From Negaprion brevirostris (Eukaryota): 64,000 nt of DNA. Below the pieces are notes generated by a model. The model worked only from the letters and a program-made list of their open reading frames with translations, had not been told where the DNA came from and ran no database searches. The translations under genes were made by a program, and so were the position numbers. The DNA is taken from assembly GCA_030324005.1 (NCBI GenBank), contig JARDVH010000121.1, positions 27,012,549 to 27,076,548 of the forward strand. Direction: 5' to 3'. This document shows positions 6,531 to 54,540 of the stretch, piece by piece (position 1 is the stretch's first letter; every line of letters begins with the position of its first letter).

Positions 6531-6719
6531 GCACTATTGGAATAATCATAGGTTCAAAAATATTGAAATCATTATGGGGAAATTTTTCAAAGCAAACCAA
6601 AATTGCCAGTATTTCCTCTTCTGGGAGGAAATGTCAACATTTGCTGGAGGTTCTCTCAAACAAATACACACTCCACCTTACATCACAATCCCATAATACA
6701 ATGCTGGAATAAGGAGTAG

Positions 6720-7058
6720 GACGGCATGGTAGCACAGTGGTTAGTACTGCTGCCTCACTGCGCCAGGGACCTGAGCTCAATTCCAGCCTTGGATGACTGT
6801 CTATGTGGAGTTTGCTTGATCTCCCCGTGTCTACATGGGTTTCCTCTGAGTGCTCTGGTTTCCTCCTATAGTCCAAAGGCATGCAGGTTAGGTGGATTGC
6901 TCACGATAAATTGCTCCTTAGAGTATCAAGATGTATACGTTAGTTGGGTAAATATGTGGGGTTACAGGAATAGGGCCTGGGTTTGATTGTTGTCAGAAAG
7001 TCTGTGCAGGCTTGGTAGCTGAATGGCCTCCTTCTGCACTATATGGATTCTATGATTC
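6720..7058 (+). mobile_element. HE1-like V-SINE (tRNA-derived)
   Basis: tRNA-like head GGTAGCACAGTGGTTAG with A/B boxes, V-domain GGGTTTCCTC.G.GTGCTCTGGTTTCCTCC, and a CR1-like tail ending in GATTCTAT repeats. Confidence 0.85.
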
Positions 7059-12667: not shown

Positions 12668-12985
12668 GAGGGCACGGTGGCATAATGGTTAGGACTGCTG
12701 CCTCACAGGGCCAGAGACCCGGGTTCAATTCCTAGCTTGTATCACTGTCTGTGCGGAGTCTGCATCTTCTCCTCATTTCTGTGTGGGTTTCCTCTGGGTG
12801 CTCCAGTTTCCTCCCACCCTCCAAAGATGTGCAGGTTAGGCTGATCTGCCATGCTAAATTGACCCTCATGTAAGGGAGATTTGCAGGGTAAATATGTGGG
12901 GTTAAGGGGATAGGGCCTGATGGGATTGTGGTCAGTGCAGACTCGAAGGCATGAATGGCTCCTTCTTCACTGAAGGGATTCTATG
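12668..12985 (+). mobile_element. HE1-like V-SINE
   Basis: GGGCACGGTGGCATAATGGTTAG head, GGTTCAATTCC B-box, V-domain and GGATTCTATG tail. Confidence 0.85.
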
Positions 12986-13608
12986 AAAATTGAGGATTCT
13001 ATGAAAATTGGGAAAAGGACTCCCAATGTCTTGGTGAGGTTCAGTAGTGTACCTGGAAAAGTAAAACATTACATTGCAGGAGTGAGCTGACTGTCAGCTT
13101 GGTCCTGGCCAAGAAGAATTGAAGTCCTTCCAATTAGGGGTAGATCTGGACTTCCTACCAAGGAAAGTCACGACTTTAGGTATTGCAGAGGCAGCAAGAT
13201 CACAAAGTCGATGGGGAATTTAGCCACAATCTTATCGATAATCGATCTAGATTTTGAAACTGAAATGGAAATTAGGTTTTTATTACAGATGTTTGGGGTT
13301 TTTCTGAAAATCTCATCAGAAAAAACATCCAGTTAAGGGATAGCAGTCAAAATGTTCACAGAATAATTCACTACAACTAATGATGTATTCTGACAGGCAC
13401 TTTAAGAGTGACAGGATCAAAGTTGACAATAAGTTTGCAACCCAGACTCTTCAGCCTTTCCAAATAAAGGGGATTATGTAAAGTACTTAATAGTACTGTT
13501 GAAGAGAGAAACTGTCAATGGAAGTAATGGAGGGTGATATTGTTTGTGATTTAGTAACAATCTAGTAAATAATTAAAAAGAAATTCTGAATGTAGTGGCA
13601 GCCTTTAC

Positions 13609-21199: not shown

Positions 21200-21490
21200 T
21201 ATGGTGGCACAGTGGTTAGCACTGCTGCCTCACAGTGCCAGTGACCTGGGTTCGATTCCTGGCTTGGGTCGCTGTCTGTGTAGAGTCTGCGTGTTCTCTC
21301 CATATCTCTGTGAGTTTCTTCCAAGCACTGCAGTTTCCTCCCACAGTCTGAAAGATGTGCTGGTTGGGTGCACTGACCAAGCTAAATTCTTCCTTAGTAT
21401 ATCTGAACAGATGCCAGAGTGTGGTGACTTGAGGATTGTTACATTGCACTGTTAATGTAAGCCTACTTGTGACACTAATAAATAAACTTT
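21200..21490 (+). mobile_element. V-SINE (HE1-related) with a different tail
   Basis: tRNA head with GGTTCGATTCC B-box and V-domain. The tail is TGTAAGCCTACTTGTGACACTAATAAATAAAC instead of the CR1-type tail. Confidence 0.8.
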
Positions 21491-23971: not shown

Positions 23972-24280
23972 GGCAACATGGTCGCACAGTGGTTAGCACT
24001 GCTGCCTCATAGCACCAGGGATCCAACTTTGTTTCTGGTCTTGGGTCACTGCCTATGTGGAGTTTGCACATTCTCCCCATGTCAGCGTGGGTTTCCTCTG
24101 GTTGCTCCGGTTTTCTCCCACAGTCCAAACATGTGTGGGTTAGGTTGATTGACCATGCTAAATTGACCCTAGTGTCAAGAGGGTTAGCAGGGTAAATGAA
24201 GGTTATGGAATAGGGTCAGGGTGGGATTATTGTCAGTACAGACTTGATGGGCTGAATGGCCTCCCTCTGATTCTATTCGA
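23972..24280 (+). mobile_element. HE1-like V-SINE
   Basis: Same head, V-domain and tail as the copies at 6720 and 12668. Confidence 0.85.
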
Positions 24281-28720: not shown

Positions 28721-29839
28721 TGAGCAGAATTTCCAGGAAGGAAAGAAGTGGAAAGTGAGGAAACAAAAGAGTTAAGCAAACGCAAAATAGAATTCCAATA
28801 AGAACTACAGAAATCATAGGTCAAGGTCATCCAGGATGAAAGTTAAAGTTCACAAAATTATGTGGTATTTAAACCATCTGCAGCTTCCCATCACCCAGTA
28901 GACCCTTCACATTACCAATGCATTCTTAAGCCTTTTGGCATGTCCTAAGTAGAGCTTGTTTTATGTAGACCAAGCTTGCCTTTCATTAGATTTGCTGTTA
29001 ATAAACCATAAGGTGACAAACAGCCACATTCAAGTATGACGTGTTAATGGTTAATTTTACAAACTCGAGAGTCTCTGTCCACATCCTGCATTAAGTTATT
29101 CTGAAACAGATCCCTTAATACCAAGATTGTTGCCATAAAGGCTTATGCATAAATCAAGGAAATAAGAGAAAGAAAAGTTAACAATTGAAGAATAAAAATT
29201 TAAAGACAAGCAAAAGTCAAAGAGAGTTAAAGGTACACAACAAGGAAATGGATTTAAACTGCCAGAGGAGACCCTGTCAGAGGATAAATATAAATGTTTC
29301 CTCACAGGAAGGGAGAGAACAATCAACAACTGACTCACCACACTCACTCCCTTTCGGAACACAATAACACTTCACTTTCAAATCACTGGAAATGAATTCT
29401 GCTCCACGAAAGAAACTGCACAATCAATTTTAATTGAAAGTCAAACCTTTTGAAGCGCTCAAATATAACTGTGCAAACTAACACTGAGCTGAGCCATGAG
29501 ACCTGGCTCTAAATGTAACCCTCAACTTCTGACATAGCAAGTTCCCAATCTCTATTGCAATCCAAAGTGTAGAGATGAGGTCCTATGTTTCCTCACAGGA
29601 CAGAAGAATTAGAGGGCAATAAACTGCATGCTGTTCACAAGCACTTTCAGGCAGCTTACTAAAAGTCACACTCGTCAGAACTTGATAGCAGGTCACTTAC
29701 CAGCCTTCCTAGCTTGGGAAGTGTTGAATAGTTCAGTAAGACAGAGAGGTGAAAGAAATAGCACTGGAAAATACAAGATGAAATATACATCCTTCATGGA
29801 TTGCAAGAAAGGTCTGTAATCTTTAATAATCTCTCTCAC

Positions 29840-29963
29840 CATCTCCTCTTCTCGGGTTTTGTCTTGACCGTTCTGCTGTAGCTGCTCTTCTGTTTGGGTT
29901 GTCCAGCTCAGTTTCTCGGCCCCTCCATCGGTGGTGATCTCTTTGCCAACGGTCAGGATCCAT
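29840..29963 (-). CDS. ZNFX1: ZNFX1 first coding exon (exon 29840-29978, ATG at 29963)
   Basis: Encodes MDPDRWQRDHHRWRGRETELDNPNRRAATAERSRQNPRRGD. Acceptor TCTTCACAG ends at 29979 and the donor is G|GTGAG. Phase 1 joins in frame (G|CT = Ala) to the large exon, and the Arg-rich composition matches the start of that exon. Confidence 0.8.
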
Positions 29964-30897
29964 TTGAAACAATTTGCTCTGTGAAGACATCAAGCAATTA
30001 TATAATGCATTATTATTGCAACAAGAGGTGGTACCTTCCGCAAAGGCCTGATGTGAGTACACGGTTTCACAATGAGGGTGAAGGAGGATAATTACTGTCC
30101 TTCTCATTTATTTTCTCTGTTCCCTGTCTTGAGGGCTGTCTTCATTGCTGAGGGTATCTCAGTCAAGTGGTAATAATTATTTGGAAAACTAGATCAAGAG
30201 TGGTAACAACCAATTTGACTAAAGGACAACCATAACCAAATCCAATTTTGTCTTCTCCCAATCTGCCTGAATGTAGACTTTCAGCAGCATTCAATGACCA
30301 ACAATGAGCAGCTGGAATACTGATCAATATTCTATTTCCAATTTACAGGTATTGAGGCCAATTATTCCTCTCCCATGTTCCTTCTGTCTACCAGTCTAGT
30401 TGAGAATAGATAACTAGCAATTGCATCCCATGCTTCCCAATCTGTGCGGCTTAAGCAACTGAACACTGGGGCAGGTTGGTGGGAAGTGAATATTTTAATG
30501 AATAATCTACCAAAAAATATCTGTTATTTCAATTATAGGTGTACATTATTAGATTGAAGGGGACAACTCAAATCTAATATTCAGGAATGCTTTAGCTGTT
30601 GATTCCAGGCAGCTTTTCCTTAGCAGTCTTTGTTTAGTTCTTTTAAGAAATTAATTCTATGGCGTAATAAAGTTGAGCACGTTTTCTTAACCAATTCACT
30701 GTAAGTATGACTCTATAAATCAAAGAATTAGAGTATCCTTGTTTCACATCATGCTACAGTCAGCCAAGAGACTCACATTTGTCTCAAAGGAGAGTTGCGT
30801 TACTTATACTGCAATCCACAAGAGTACACTGCTGACCAATTCCCATTCAGATTAACGGTTAATAATAAATTCAATGCTTGGGAAATAATCATAATAC

Positions 30898-31107
30898 TTT
30901 TTTTTTGTTTTTTATTCCAATTCAATCAAATCAAGTTTGATTCAGAATCTCAACAAGTTGAGACATTCCTGATCCAAACTGACAAGACAGGGCTCTCACC
31001 TCCTGTCTTGGGCTTGATCTACATGATCCAAGCTGATTGCAGTCGGCATAGCTCCTCCTCCAAGGCTTGATCTCATTTGCATCTTAGCCAAAAGGCCGAG
31101 ATGCCGC
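30898..31107 (-). other. Poly(A)-tailed retroposed element with U2 snRNA-derived 5' end (candidate SINEU-like element, not a U2 gene)
   Basis: Minus strand 31101-31081 is TCTCGGCCTTTTGGCTAAGAT, identical to U2 nt 7-27 as recalled. There is no branch-point recognition sequence or Sm site. AATAAA at 30916-30911 is followed by an A-tract. Confidence 0.7.
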
Positions 31108-33354
31108 TTTAAAAAATTGCTTCAAATGAAGCTAAAATGTAACCTAATGACTTCAACTAAGCGCAGCATGTCGATACTACATTTGATCAAGAGAAATTCC
31201 CTGAACCAGGTCCGTAATTCTGACATTTGTAGAGTCAATGGTGCCACAAAAAGTTTGGAAAGAATATAGTGTCCAAGATTATCCTTATATTCAGCACAGC
31301 CATTCATGGATTATGAAGTAACCTTCTCCTGTAAATTTTAGTTCTCCTTCTTAGGAACTGCCAAATATTTGAAGTAGGCCTTCAAAAAACTCCTTGCTAT
31401 TTGTCAGTTTACTCAGCATCCCCAACTAACTGTCCTCTGATACCTCAATCAAACTGTCATCTGATACCACAATCTTCATTGTGATTCTAAAACGGCAAGT
31501 GGGAGTATGTTATCTGGCCATATAAGGCATCTTCGCCAAGCACTATAGCGTCATGATGTTAAGGCACGGACTTACTAGCATGGGTCACTCATTAGTAATA
31601 GGACCAGCAACCCTGACTGCCTTTCCTCTATTTCTTGAACATAATTCAGCCTCAACAATCATCTAGATTGCGATCAGCTAGTCCAGCACTGGACTATTTA
31701 TCAGTAACATGCATTCTGGGAAGAATTGATGTCAAGGAGCATGGGAATGGGTAAGGTTTCAGAGACCTCAATTGAAAGCTTCCTCAGTCTTGGATCCTTG
31801 CAACCAAATACAGCAACAATCAATGGTGATGATCACATCTTTTGTTTATGCTACCATTACAATTTGTGCAAATAGTTAAAAAAAAATCTGCACTTTGTGA
31901 TGCAAGGGAACACTTGTATAAGAACATGGTTGGATTTTTCAGGACATTTTGGATCCTCATTTCTACATTCAATACTTTCAAAACAAAGCAATGATTTCAT
32001 TTTCTGGTGTAGTCATGACTACTTTATGTTAATAAATTAAAACAAGGAACTGTTGCTTGATGACTGTGTAAACAGTGCCTACACAATGTTTCTCTAACAG
32101 CTACTGCTACTCTTTATTACTACAGTAGTACTGAACATAAAACTCCAAATACGCAAGCAGTGTTGCTTTGTTACAAGCAATACCAATACATTACTGAAGT
32201 TCTTATTTCAGCTGTATTTAGTACAATGAAATATTACATATAAAAAACTAGTTCTCTACAACTACAGATCTTCATGCTCAGTTCCATTTTCAATATTACC
32301 AAGGCTGTTTACACAGTATCATTTTAAAGCCTATGAATACTCATCACAATTCCTTTCTCCAAAGGATTTTGATGCAAACAAGTCCATTCAAATAGGAGAA
32401 AAAAAGGCAAACACAACACGTTGACATATAAAGCAGTATATTTATCCCCAAGGTAGGGAAATTTCCCAGCTTGGTGTCCTGCCTCAGGAANNNNNNNNNN
32501 NNNNNNNNNNNNNNNNNNNNNNNNNNNNNNNNNNNNNNNNNNNNNNNNNNNNNNNNNNNNNNNNNNNNNNNNNNNNNNNNNNNNNNNNNNNNNNNNNNNN
32601 NNNNNNNNNNNNNNNNNNNNNNNNNNNNNNNNNNNNNNNNNNNNNNNNNNNNNNNNNNNNNNNNNNNNNNNNNNNNNNNNNNNNNNNNNNNNNNNNNNNN
32701 NNNNNNNNNNNNNNNNNNNNNNNNNNNNNNNNNCCCTATCCATGTCCCCTTATACCCTCCTTCCCAACTCCCATGCCCTCATGGCCTCCAAACCATCCTA
32801 CATTCCTTTACCCATGCTGCCAGCACCCTATGTACCTTCCATGCCAAGCAATGCCTCTCCAGCATCACCACCCCCCCCCCCCCCAACCACATCGTCCTTC
32901 ATACCCTCCACGGCAAACAACAGCACTTTCATGCCAATACATCCAGTACAAGGAACCAATAAACCCTTTGGCAACAATAGCATGTGTGGCAAAGGTTTTA
33001 AAAAATCATTCAATTGCTACATTCTACTTTCCTTTTAAAAAGCTGCTTTTACTACAGCCCTATAAAAGGATTTTGCATCCAGACCAGAGGCTGCTGCCAG
33101 CAGAGGCAACCAAATGGATGAATGCCATTACTGCTCCCAAGGGAGAACATTGCTTAATTGTCAGCCATTTCTCTTTGATCTATTCTGCTGAGTGCACAAT
33201 GTTTATTTACACAAGATAAGGTGTGGAATGCTTGTAGCTTCTGCTATTGATACTTTAAATGTCTGGATGATTTGCACTTTTATTAGGCGGTAGTAAAAAG
33301 TTTTCTTTAGGAAAGTGAAAAATCATAAATGGTTCACTATTTCAGCAAACTTTT

Positions 33355-48050: not shown

Positions 48051-48751
48051 AACTCCCAATATTCCTATTGAATCCATACTTAATGAGTTGCTGTGTACTG
48101 GCTGCAAGTTGACTTGCACTAATTTTGCATAATTTACCAAAGTGGGCATTTGTCTAGGGGACACTACTGTGGTGATGTCTGAAGCTCTGCCCATGTGATT
48201 CATGTACCATCTTAAGATTCTTTTTATATGGAGGCATAAGTATTTGGATACCAATGGAATTTGTTTTGCATATTGGGATGCAATAATACCCACGGAATCA
48301 TAAAACCACAAACTCCATGCAGTCACCTAAATTTGAAATGGAACCCTGGTGTTGAGACAGCAGTGCTAACCACTCCGTCCTAAATATCAGTCAGTATCGG
48401 CATGTGTCTCTAGAATTACTTTACCCAAAATATAGAATTGGCTATGAAATCTGCATCAAATATCTTTTTAAAAACTGAAATTTGAAGTCCCTGGGTGTGA
48501 AAGACTTGTGACTGATCCCTGCTTGGAATATTTCAAGTTGCTTCAATTATTTTCATCAACAGTGCCAATGAACTTGCTAAGTCACTTCAGCAGAGGCAGG
48601 AAAGAGAATTTGATATAGTAAAGGAAAAATAATCATTTAAAGATTTTATAGTCTGTCACATGTAGGTTTACATTAACACTGCAGCAAAGTTACTGTGAAA
48701 ATCACCAATGATTTGAGTATCCATTGTCTGAAAATACTTTTGTTTTTGAAG

Positions 48752-49061
48752 ATGCCAGCCTTGGATGGTCCAAGACGTACTGTGGAATTGAAACAAAATG
48801 CTCAAAGACTGCCTGCTGGAAGTTTGTCAGCACAACATATCGTGTCTTCAAGTAATGCAGGCCAGCAAAATTTACCTCTTCAAACATTGGTTCTGCCTGC
48901 CAATTCAGCTCCAATAAAGCGTCAGGTGTTAACAAATCAAGTAAAACAGACAGGGCAAGTGCCCCTCCAAAAGCAGGCTTGCCGAAAAGCAGAAGTTCAA
49001 CAAATTTCTGAACCTCCCAGAAAGCAAACCAGTGCACAACCTGTTGAGGCATCACGTGATG
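48752..49061 (+). CDS. AURKA: Aurora kinase A coding exon 2 (N-terminal regulatory region)
   Basis: Encodes MPALDGPRRTVELKQ...QTLVLPANSAP...ASRD, similar to GPKRV/QRVLCPSNS in human AURKA. AG at 48750-48751 and G|GTATGT; 310 nt, phase 1. Confidence 0.85.
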
Positions 49062-50299
49062 GTATGTATACTTCTAAAACTGATATGGCATAGAATGTTA
49101 ACAATATTGTCCTCCAATAATTGCTAATTTGTATGGAGTATGGTTTTTATAGTTAACATTTGATTTCTTGTAGAAGATCAGTCAGTGGGGTCCAGTAAAG
49201 TATTTTTCCATTCTTGAATTGTAGTTCTGAGTCCAAAATATTTGAAGTAATATTGGTTGTTGCAGAATTCCCTCTGAAGAGATGTTCAGCAGGTCATGAG
49301 GTTAGGTGCACGTAGGAGATCAGATTTATTTTCAACTGGAGTTGGGTGTCTTGGAATCTGATTGGGAGGCTTTCTAAAATACTTTAGTTTAAAGCTTCTT
49401 GGTTATTGATGTAAAGCCTTTAGCTGCTGCTTGCATGTTCTTCTGTAGTCTGACCTGGTCTGATTCTTTAGATAAGCTGATTTGGGTCACATGACCTATA
49501 CTGGAATCATCCGACCAGATTGTTTTGGACATGTGAAAACCATCACTACGCAATAAAAGACATTTAGATGCCTTTTTCTCAAAGTTTGGATAACTTATTT
49601 TGTCAGCTTTCTTCCGTTAAATTACAAATTTAACAAAGAGCCCAGTTATTCCATCTTTGGAGTAAGATTCAAACACAGATGTGTGCTATCTGGGTATGGT
49701 TAGTCAGGGTGGAGCCCCTCAACCATCACCAGCCAGTGATACAATTGAACCTTCCAGAAGCTTGATGAGCAAAATTCCCATACCTCTTGGCCAAAAGACA
49801 TTTTAAAAATATGAAAGATGCTTCCACAGGAAATAGTTGATGTTGAAAATTATGAATAGGACTTGCCTTCACAAGATCATGCCACACTATTACTGTATTC
49901 TTGTGCTGTCAAATTATCTGCATTTCATTCAGCTACTAAGTTGGGAAAATGAATTGCAGCTGGAACAAAGCATCTTTCATATTTGGCATTTATTGAACTT
50001 TCAGGCCAATACACATAAAGACACTGTCTTTATTTGCAATTTTGTTTTTGCGTAAAATTGATACTTGGAAAGCTTTGCCTGTTTTTGTTATAAAAGCTGA
50101 AAATGTAGTAACTTTTAGGCTTGTTACTGTGATTTCTCTATATGTATTGTCAGAAACTTTGCCTTTTGTGCTTTAGGCTTCTCAAATTAAGTAGTGATGA
50201 GATTTTTTGGGGTTTCAAGCTTCTATAGAGCTAATTGTTTTATTGGTGACTTAACAGACTTTCTCAGAAGACTAAACAATTTGGCATTTTAGCTAAACA

Positions 50300-53469: not shown

Positions 53470-54540
53470 AGACTGGGTGAGAAGACAAAGGCTTTTAGCA
53501 AGCCCAGAGGGAGCAATTCAGCTGTAATCTTGGAGGAATATAGGAAGTGCAAGAGGGAACTTGAAGTCCTTAGTGGAAAGGGAGCATGAAAATGACTTGT
53601 GAACAGGATTAGAGAGAATCCTAAGATTTTGTGAATACATTATAGGGAAGAGAGGTTAACCAGGGAAAGCGTCGGATACATTAGGAGCAAGTGGTCAATC
53701 TGTGAAGCCACAGGATATTAAAAGGGTGTTAACTGAATACTTCGGCCTTCACTCTGGAAAAGGAAAATTTTTTTCAGGAAAAGGGACTGAGGAACTTGCA
53801 CTGAAATGGGAAGATATTGGAGACTTTGACAAGATTAAACAGACCTATGGTGTGGATGCATTCCATTCCAGGCTGCTGTGGATGCAAGACAAGAAACTGC
53901 AGGGGCTCTGACACATTTTTAATTTCTGTCCAAGGGGGGAGGGGGTCCACTTTTTCAAGGGTGGTAGAGATGGAACACAGGCAAGTCTCATGTCAGGAAG
54001 TATTGGGAAGAATTAATATCCAAAGGCATGGCTTTGTCAGAGGGAGGCCATGCTCAACAAATTTGTTAGAACTTTTTGAAAATGTGATCACATGTGTCAA
54101 TTGGGGAAGTTCAGTTAATGTAGCTTATTTGGCTCTTGAAGCTTTTGAAGTCCCATGTGGGAGACTGAAGGTTAAACCACATGGAATTTAGGGAAACTTG
54201 CCAAGATGGATCAGGAACTGGCTTGACAGTAGGACACAGGGTAGTAATAGAAGGCTGAAGAAACTGGATAGCTTTCTTTAGAGCCAAATGAGTGGGAAGC
54301 AGCTGTTTCTCTTGATTGGGGGAGGGGGCATAGTTTTGAGAAAACAGCTTCACTCAAGGATGGTTGGAATCTGGAGTGCTCTACCTGGAAAAGTAGTGGA
54401 GGTTGGAAACTGCAACCTCTAAGAAAAAAGTATTTGGATGAGAACTTGAAATGTAACTTTCAAGGATATGGGATTAGTGCACTTTGGTAGTTATAAATAA
54501 TGCACATTTGATGGGCTGAAGAGCCTTTTCTGTATGACTA
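53470..54540 (+). mobile_element. Degenerate CR1 LINE ORF2 fragments
   Basis: Remnant QRHGFVRGRPCSTNLLELFENV...G..VNVAYL...AF.VP.GRL (RT domain). Confidence 0.8.

Follow-up and report, generated by a model that had tools for sequence, protein, structure and literature searches.

The closest described systems to the repeat analyzed here are the SINEU elements, whose heads derive from U1 or U2 snRNA. In the accessible text of their description, SINEU-1, -2 and -3 are found solely in crocodilians and their mode of transcription is left open (Kojima 2015, PMC4494074); the crocodilian-only distribution is repeated in the available part of a 2017 review (PMC5381603). The same portion of the original description gives them U2-derived 5' sequence with repeated U2 additions and partial duplications, a length below 500 bp, a poly(A) tail, internal oligo-T without a Pol III promoter, TSDs that are not always present, 10^3-10^4 copies and a likely Tx1 partner (PMC4494074). 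Two further elements, Keno (Tx1 clade) and Utopia, form a junction with U2 near nt 38-40 and, in the sections of their description that were available, are autonomous, protein-coding and followed by U2 nt 39 onward (PMC4640811). The SINEs reported from sharks, HE1 (V-SINE), SacSINE1 and SINE2-1_CM, are short, abundant and non-autonomous, with tRNA heads and CR1-type partners according to the accessible parts of the sources (PMC3747384, PMC10468316).

The window, by which the whole 64-kb stretch of DNA under analysis is meant, contains on its minus strand one copy of a shark repeat family that resembles SINEU in the features listed above, with a Tx1 LINE as its probable partner. The element is below 500 bp, ends in a poly(A) tail, carries a U2 head and internal oligo-T without an internal Pol III promoter, and belongs to a dispersed family of shared structure with recurrent snRNA addition and partial duplication. 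While SINEU heads come from U1 or U2, no U1 part was found in the shark family; furthermore, a branch-point fold-back and compensated twin hairpins are predicted in the shark family but are not described in the portion of the SINEU text that was available (PMC4494074). The comparison is one of described traits and not of body sequence, and the shark family probably has an origin separate from that of crocodilian SINEU. With Keno and Utopia the family shares the position of the U2 junction, but it is 0.3 kb long, non-coding (no frame of at least 120 aa overlaps 30898-31188) and dispersed, with neither insertion into a U2 gene, in the window or among the 3' ends listed, nor a reverse transcriptase and endonuclease. 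Like the shark SINEs it is short, abundant and non-autonomous; unlike them it has a U2 head and no CR1-type ending, and the tRNA, 5S or 7SL head and internal promoter that mark Pol III SINEs are absent. U2 snRNA (RF00004) and its truncated retropseudogenes have exact nt 7-27 and near-exact nt 25-40 in common with the element, but the rest of U2, with stem-loops II-IV and the Sm site, is missing, and an unrelated structured body, an AATAAA and an A tail are present instead.

No snRNA-headed SINE of sharks was encountered in a literature search that covered subscription papers and Repbase Reports thinly; one further paper gives, in the part available, class totals without family names (PMC13434710). 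The family is likely to be present in automatic shark repeat libraries, unnamed or labelled as a small RNA, and the chance that a curated entry of the Repbase or Dfam type already exists is about one in four. If the assignment is true, the shark family would extend the SINEU type beyond crocodilians for the first time, and a second abundant family would mean that such a design arises repeatedly where Tx1 elements come together with U2.

Extent, dispersal and genomic setting

Among 22 listed public runs, 20, from 12 studies, contain all or some of the repeat stretch; none of those listed is an RNA run, although X6 and X13 may be of RNA or of DNA. Four runs from four different organisms were aligned to window positions 30400-31600, and matching contigs numbered 4,994 in X1, 12,024 in X7, 183 in X13 and 277 in X6, which excludes the single-copy case that the preliminary description had named as its refutation. 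In all four, depth steps and loose contig ends fall at 30898/30899 and at 31188. The jump in depth covers 30892-31188: summed contig depth is 27,000-236,000 on the element versus 5-9 on the flanks in X1, and 41,000-346,000 versus 5-9 in X7, with element-to-flank ratios at seven positions of 1,303-28,344 and 2,502-49,028, respectively. Summed contig depth is not copy number, and at the order of magnitude that alone holds, a family size of approximately 10^3-10^4 copies is likely.

A firmer floor for the number of copies is set by the 103 X1 contigs that match the A tail to its end and leave it at two positions with long flanks that are mutually unlike (55 + 48 at 30898 and 30899; 94 contigs, 47 + 47, in X7). 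Beyond the A tail, the 3' flanks agree mutually just 0.34-0.36 in X1 and X7, and the copies are therefore dispersed. Among the best 24 of 564 rows, the flanks are mixed, AT-rich and not U2 nt 39 onward. The shark family thus shows no sign of one preferred target, whereas SINEU, in the accessible text, favours Mariner-N4_AMi (PMC4494074). A satellite, which was also considered, is ruled out by the unrelated flanks. The body of the element is common to thousands of contigs from the four organisms, together with A tails and unrelated flanks, and the element is accordingly an abundant dispersed repeat family rather than a one-off. Go-back joints at 31097-30973 (X1 and X7) and 31130-30902 (X7) represent modular or tandem forms, and a second subfamily is represented by approximately 40 X1 contigs, and as many from X7, whose sequence departs from the element 5' of 31132. 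There is no second copy within the 64-kb window, and pattern scans for the element gave no match in metagenome contigs or viral contigs.

These data both extend and correct the preliminary description. Its view of a SINEU-type family, as opposed to an ordinary truncated U2 pseudogene, is borne out by the shared body in thousands of contigs. It had the element begin at 31107; repeat depth reaches 31188 in the four runs, 81 nt further 5', and the TTTTTT/AAA that it took for an L1/Tx1 target in the 5' flank therefore lies inside the element. The features of the complete copy are collected in Table 1.

Table 1. Features of the repeat copy and its context, in window coordinates.
Feature	Position	Strand	Remarks
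ZNFX1 first coding exon	29838-29990	minus	context; element 0.9 kb upstream, same sense
Whole copy, 5'-truncated, U2-headed repeat	30898-31188	minus	291 nt; depth step and loose ends
A tail, one C within	30898-30913	minus	other copies match to tail end
AATAAA polyadenylation-type signal	30911-30916	minus	
Closing stem, 3' arm	30924-30944	minus	predicted; degenerate 5-nt repeats
Hairpin 3, 7 bp	30947-30964	minus	
Twin hairpin unit 2	30971-31020	minus	outer stem and internal loop as unit 1
Twin hairpin unit 1	31025-31073	minus	8-bp outer stem, internal loop, 9-bp inner stem
11-nt insert inside U2 sequence	31070-31080	minus	overlaps octamer
Octamer ATGCAAAT	31082-31075	minus	overlaps 11-nt insert
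U2 block B, stem-loop I, U2 nt 4-27	31081-31104	minus	23/24; 21 exact at 31101-31081
Internal T run and AAA	31108-31116	minus	not Sm consensus
Small 5-bp hairpin	31119-31132	minus	predicted
Closing stem, 5' arm	31133-31152	minus	pairs with 30944-30924, predicted
Fold-back arm, complementary to U2 nt 25-39	31155-31169	minus	predicted
U2 block A, U2 nt 25-40	31173-31188	minus	15/16; 16/16 with majority letter at 31182
Branch-point recognition sequence GTAGTA	31175-31180	minus	predicted paired

ZNFX1 is encoded on the minus strand of the window, and the element is in the same sense, as had been reported. The large exon of this gene is 98% identical to that of Mustelus asterias and 94% to that of Scyliorhinus, with 77-81% for rays and chimaera and at most 64% for the named bony vertebrates, values that mark the host as a shark, most likely a carcharhiniform. 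A CpG-rich stretch at 36-38 kb is likely to be the ZNFX1 promoter, and the element probably lies in the first intron of the gene, in sense orientation. Nothing in the family points to an effect on ZNFX1. Elsewhere in the same region, an inverted pair of approximately 315 nt with 77% identity (42218-42534/43408-43714) stands beside a CpG-rich stretch and has shorter relatives at 9.1, 11.0-11.2, 33.4-33.6 and 52.8 kb. On the plus strand, positions 48677-49093 hold a 138-aa Q/P/S-rich frame with no Pfam match, which may be an exon of an adjacent gene arranged head-to-head with ZNFX1.

At this locus, X6 contigs span both junctions between element and flank, and X7 pieces enter the element 29 and 30 nt from the two flanks against a threshold of 31 nt. 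These flank pieces differ by approximately 2-4% from the window, and the insertion is common to related organisms. X13 has zero cover at 30646-30891, so it is silent on presence at ZNFX1, and no empty site was found among the four runs (0 joints that skip the element, among 15 of 21 listed). At no fewer than 12 of its 291 positions, as judged from the best 40 of 89 rows, the window copy departs from the majority letter of the family, and it has no convincing TSD, the longest match being 5 nt, in agreement with the preliminary description. The copy is probably inert. In the flank, a 12-nt stretch at window position 30450 occurs in contigs of three other organisms and is absent from the window and X1.

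U2-derived sequence, tail and transcription signals

U2 positions are numbered after L004, a vertebrate-type U2 gene retrieved by the U2 motif. The exact 21-nt match to U2 nt 7-27 recorded earlier was recovered within block B, with a chance expectation of approximately 5e-6 in the window, as were the 11-nt insert and the octamer that follow it. Within the 62.8 kb of the window that are readable, the octamer ATGCAAAT is found at 7 places; its presence in the element therefore carries little weight, and its candidacy as an internal enhancer found no support. What had been overlooked is block A, nearer the 5' end. It contains GTAGTA, the U2 branch-point recognition sequence, so that the sequence formerly thought to have been replaced is in fact present.

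Past 31188, 67 X1 contigs run on as U2 nt 11-24 (13/14) and 81 X7 contigs as U2 nt 12-24 (13/13). Several joints connect 31176-31185 to a copy of stem-loop I, and in some copies joints to 31081-31083 put the head at U2 +1 or close to it. As read from these sequences, full copies would begin with approximately U2 nt 7-40 or more. Since other copies extend into stem-loop I, the window copy, which starts at U2 nt 25, is 5'-truncated, measuring 291 nt versus approximately 315 nt for a full-headed element. In one X7 contig, U2 nt 28-52 (23/25) is joined at 31141 as a separate U2 addition. Pieces from all four runs cross block B and the insert without a gap; with the U2 blocks at fixed internal places, this indicates that the chimera was inherited and not remade from copy to copy.

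No U2 match is detectable in the element beyond approximately nt 40. For the 65-nt stretch after block A, 393 and 372 of 500 shuffles reach the score against U2, and unit 2, which the preliminary description had compared with U2, resembles U2 nt 40-55 weakly, with 22 and 28 of 500 shuffles reaching the score for the two references (p ~0.05). The Rfam U2 model (RF00004) scores 19.5-19.7 bits at the element against a cut-off of 46, and no family attained its gathering score in an Rfam scan of the window; matches to CRISPR-DR45, purD and mir-218 at E 3-9.4 were taken as chance. A consensus pattern for the Sm site had no match in the element. The T run had come up as a candidate Sm site through a full-length U2 alignment (E 0.5) and was rejected, the stretch after block A being at shuffle level. 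Lacking an Sm site and any U2 match beyond approximately nt 40, the element contains nothing to suggest entry into the spliceosome. A spliceosomal role appears unlikely from the sequence, and the family does not point to a new spliceosomal RNA.

The two tandem units of approximately 53 nt noted in the preliminary description are alike to a degree reached by 0 of 500 shuffles, and the CAAGACAGG/CCTGTCTTG stem, the TCTCAAC hairpin, the AATAAA and the A tail are likewise all present. Neither an A-box nor a B-box consensus was matched in the element, and runs of four or more T occur inside it at 31116-31111 and 31093-31090; together these argue against Pol III. An AATAAA ahead of the A tail fits Pol II. 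ARAGORN and Rfam gave no tRNA, 5S or 7SL head match at the element. The idea that the 5-nt repeats near the tail form an L2-type tail found no backing in the single paper compared.

Four copies of a tRNA-headed SINE with a ATTCTATG-type tail also lie in the window (6717-7055, 12673-12986, 21201-21403 and 23977-24269). They have no significant match to the U2-headed element and are presumably of the HE1/V-SINE kind.

Predicted fold of the RNA

The claim that the element is highly structured holds for the predicted fold. The stretch originally reported (30898-31107) has a lower folding energy than any of 200 shuffles (z -3.5), and the 291-nt window copy has a folding energy of -89.0 kcal/mol (z -3.6). 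With 12 majority letters introduced, the energy falls to -103.9 kcal/mol, a value reached by 0 of 1000 random substitution sets of the same spectrum (mean -88.0, best -103.3), and the shuffle z falls to -6.0; the opposite strand folds at just -83.0 kcal/mol. Predicted pairs take up 10 of the 12 majority letters, which are depth-weighted with subfamilies mixed, three of them having just a 50-69% share in X1. The model suggests a compact RNA composed of a fold-back, the closing stem, U2 stem-loop I, the twin hairpins and hairpin 3.

In the fold-back, an arm just downstream of block A would pair with the U2 sequence itself. All 15 pairs form with the majority letters (10 Watson-Crick, 5 G-U; pair probability 0.97), versus 13 of 15 in the window copy, where the helix is partly formed (mean pair probability 0.44; 0.94 for the inner 7 bp). 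The RNA is thereby predicted to mask the U2 branch-point sequence over 15 bp. The earlier proposal that the RNA could pair with U6 but not recognize branch points, their recognition sequence having been replaced, is not supported in that form: GTAGTA lies 70 nt upstream of the start then assumed, and it is predicted to be masked. Relative to an exact complement the arm carries 5 changes, four A-to-G and one C-to-T, and a G-U pair is retained at all 5, for which P is 0.0002-0.006 depending on the transition bias assumed. These wobble-keeping changes would fit either selection at the level of the RNA or fixed A-to-I editing.

The twin hairpins offer a second set of paired changes. Between the two inner stems, 4 of the 9 pairs have changed, each on both sides, and all four are intact in the window copy; in unit 1 the inner stem has 7 of 9 pairs in the window copy and 9 of 9 with majority letters. 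The covariation is that of two units of one copy plus majority letters, and not that of an alignment of copies. Two considerations count against selection as the cause of the fold: a fold-back or tandem duplication yields complementarity without it, and a majority sequence folds better than a decayed copy in any family with a structured master. The ATCAAA/TTTGAT hairpin of the preliminary description did not survive. It is private to the window copy; with the majority letters, 3 of the 6 pairs become wobbles, and the predicted probability of pairing is 0.00 with either set of letters.

Origin of the family and competing explanations

Taken together, the data are best explained by a SINEU-type non-autonomous retroposon that is copied by a Tx1-clade LINE and whose RNA is predicted to mask the branch-point sequence, a reading to which a probability of roughly 0.7 is attached. 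An A tail without a CR1-type ending points to the L1/Tx1 group. Chondrichthyans have no full LINE1 and do have Tx1 elements, as stated in the accessible part of a whale shark paper (PMC8455134). One or a few master copies would be transcribed by Pol II from an outside promoter, either a U2-type promoter or host read-through, and the transcript would be polyadenylated at AATAAA. Its A tail would be bound by the Tx1 ORF2 protein and the cDNA inserted by target-primed reverse transcription at AT-rich sites, where reverse transcription would often halt early and leave 5'-truncated copies such as that in the window. Pieces of the U2 5' end would be gained repeatedly through template switching. The fold may have been kept since it aids survival or capture of the RNA, and the masking of the branch-point sequence may limit interference with splicing. 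If the master sits under a U2 promoter, this would answer how such SINEs are transcribed, and many copies in several species are available for tracing the master locus and the partner LINE. The predicted masking hints that retroposons bearing the intron-pairing region of U2 face a constraint, one that is open to testing. In addition, insertions of the family can serve shark phylogeny as presence/absence markers, and annotation of shark U2 genes should mask the family.

A more ambitious form of this reading is tentative, and we place it below even odds. Under it, an abundant U2-headed SINE would have arisen independently in sharks, and selection for folding would act on its RNA, which would disarm its own branch-point sequence in a wobble-rich fold-back, in which the four A-to-G changes are possible fixed ADAR edits; the twin compensated hairpins would bind a protein, much as the arms of Alu bind SRP9/14.

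It is also conceivable, if unlikely, that the family descends by internal deletion from a Keno-type Tx1 LINE that targets U2, as a non-autonomous derivative that has lost target specificity. The master would then sit in a U2 gene under the U2 promoter, and would consist of a head of U2 nt 1-40 and the two ends of the LINE. Block A ends at U2 nt 40 and thus adjoins the site of Keno and Utopia, which insert just before nt 39 in the available sections of their description (PMC4640811), so an origin from a U2-gene insertion is possible. A U2 promoter would account for both the U2 head and the absent internal boxes, and Tx1 elements occur in sharks according to the whale shark text cited above. However, the mixed, AT-rich 3' flanks, among the best rows listed, are not U2 nt 39 onward, the sequence past nt 40 is a fold-back of U2 and not obviously LINE, and the second U2 block, like the U2 addition that ends at nt 52, accords with template switching. 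This scenario overlaps with the SINEU-type reading and differs from it mostly on origin.

Quite unlikely is the proposal that a functional host RNA, shark-specific and U2-derived, with its own gene and a cellular job, gave rise to the copies by retrocopying. BC200 is the analogue of such a host function for Alu. The strong, strand-specific predicted structure, the compensated pairs, the wobble-keeping changes and, in some copies, a head at U2 +1 or close to it speak for a host RNA. Yet the division into subfamilies, the modular duplications and a copy count in the thousands agree with a selfish lineage, nothing in the window reaches an Rfam gathering score, an Sm site is absent from the element, and no source gene was seen.

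Truncated and chimeric U2 retrocopies are well known, as far as the accessible parts of the sources go (PMC4494074; PMC5322556), and the Rfam U2 score is just 19.5 bits against 46, but it is very improbable that the copies are an aggregate of separately made U2 retropseudogenes, chimeric or truncated, or that an unrelated repeat happens to adjoin a chance U2 match, given the gap-free pieces over block B and the insert in all four runs, the fixed places of the U2 blocks and the exclusion of chance by the expectation of ~5e-6.

Other sequences of possible LINE origin were seen in the window. Two repeat pairs of approximately 550 nt with 71-75% identity (2637-3182/55902-56423 and 19182-19714/28089-28638) are probably LINE fragments, and a frame at 53805-54191 is CR1-like by eye, with no Pfam match.

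U2-like sequence also turned up in unrelated collections. Forty-nine stretches of bacterial-genome contigs (L004-L052) contain the U2 motif, many of them as tandem arrays, an indication of host DNA in those assemblies. A MAG contig of eukaryote-like DNA (L007:401-422) has U2 nt 1-41 followed by unrelated sequence, a possible junction of a U2-targeted retroelement. Three IMG/VR viral contigs of 1.77-1.86 kb (L001, L002 and L003, at 401-422) carry exact U2 nt 12-40, extending to approximately nt 1-42 in L002. In L001 and L002, convergent Rep-like and capsid-like frames were recognized by eye, with the U2 piece between the stop codons, a layout resembling that of circoviruses.
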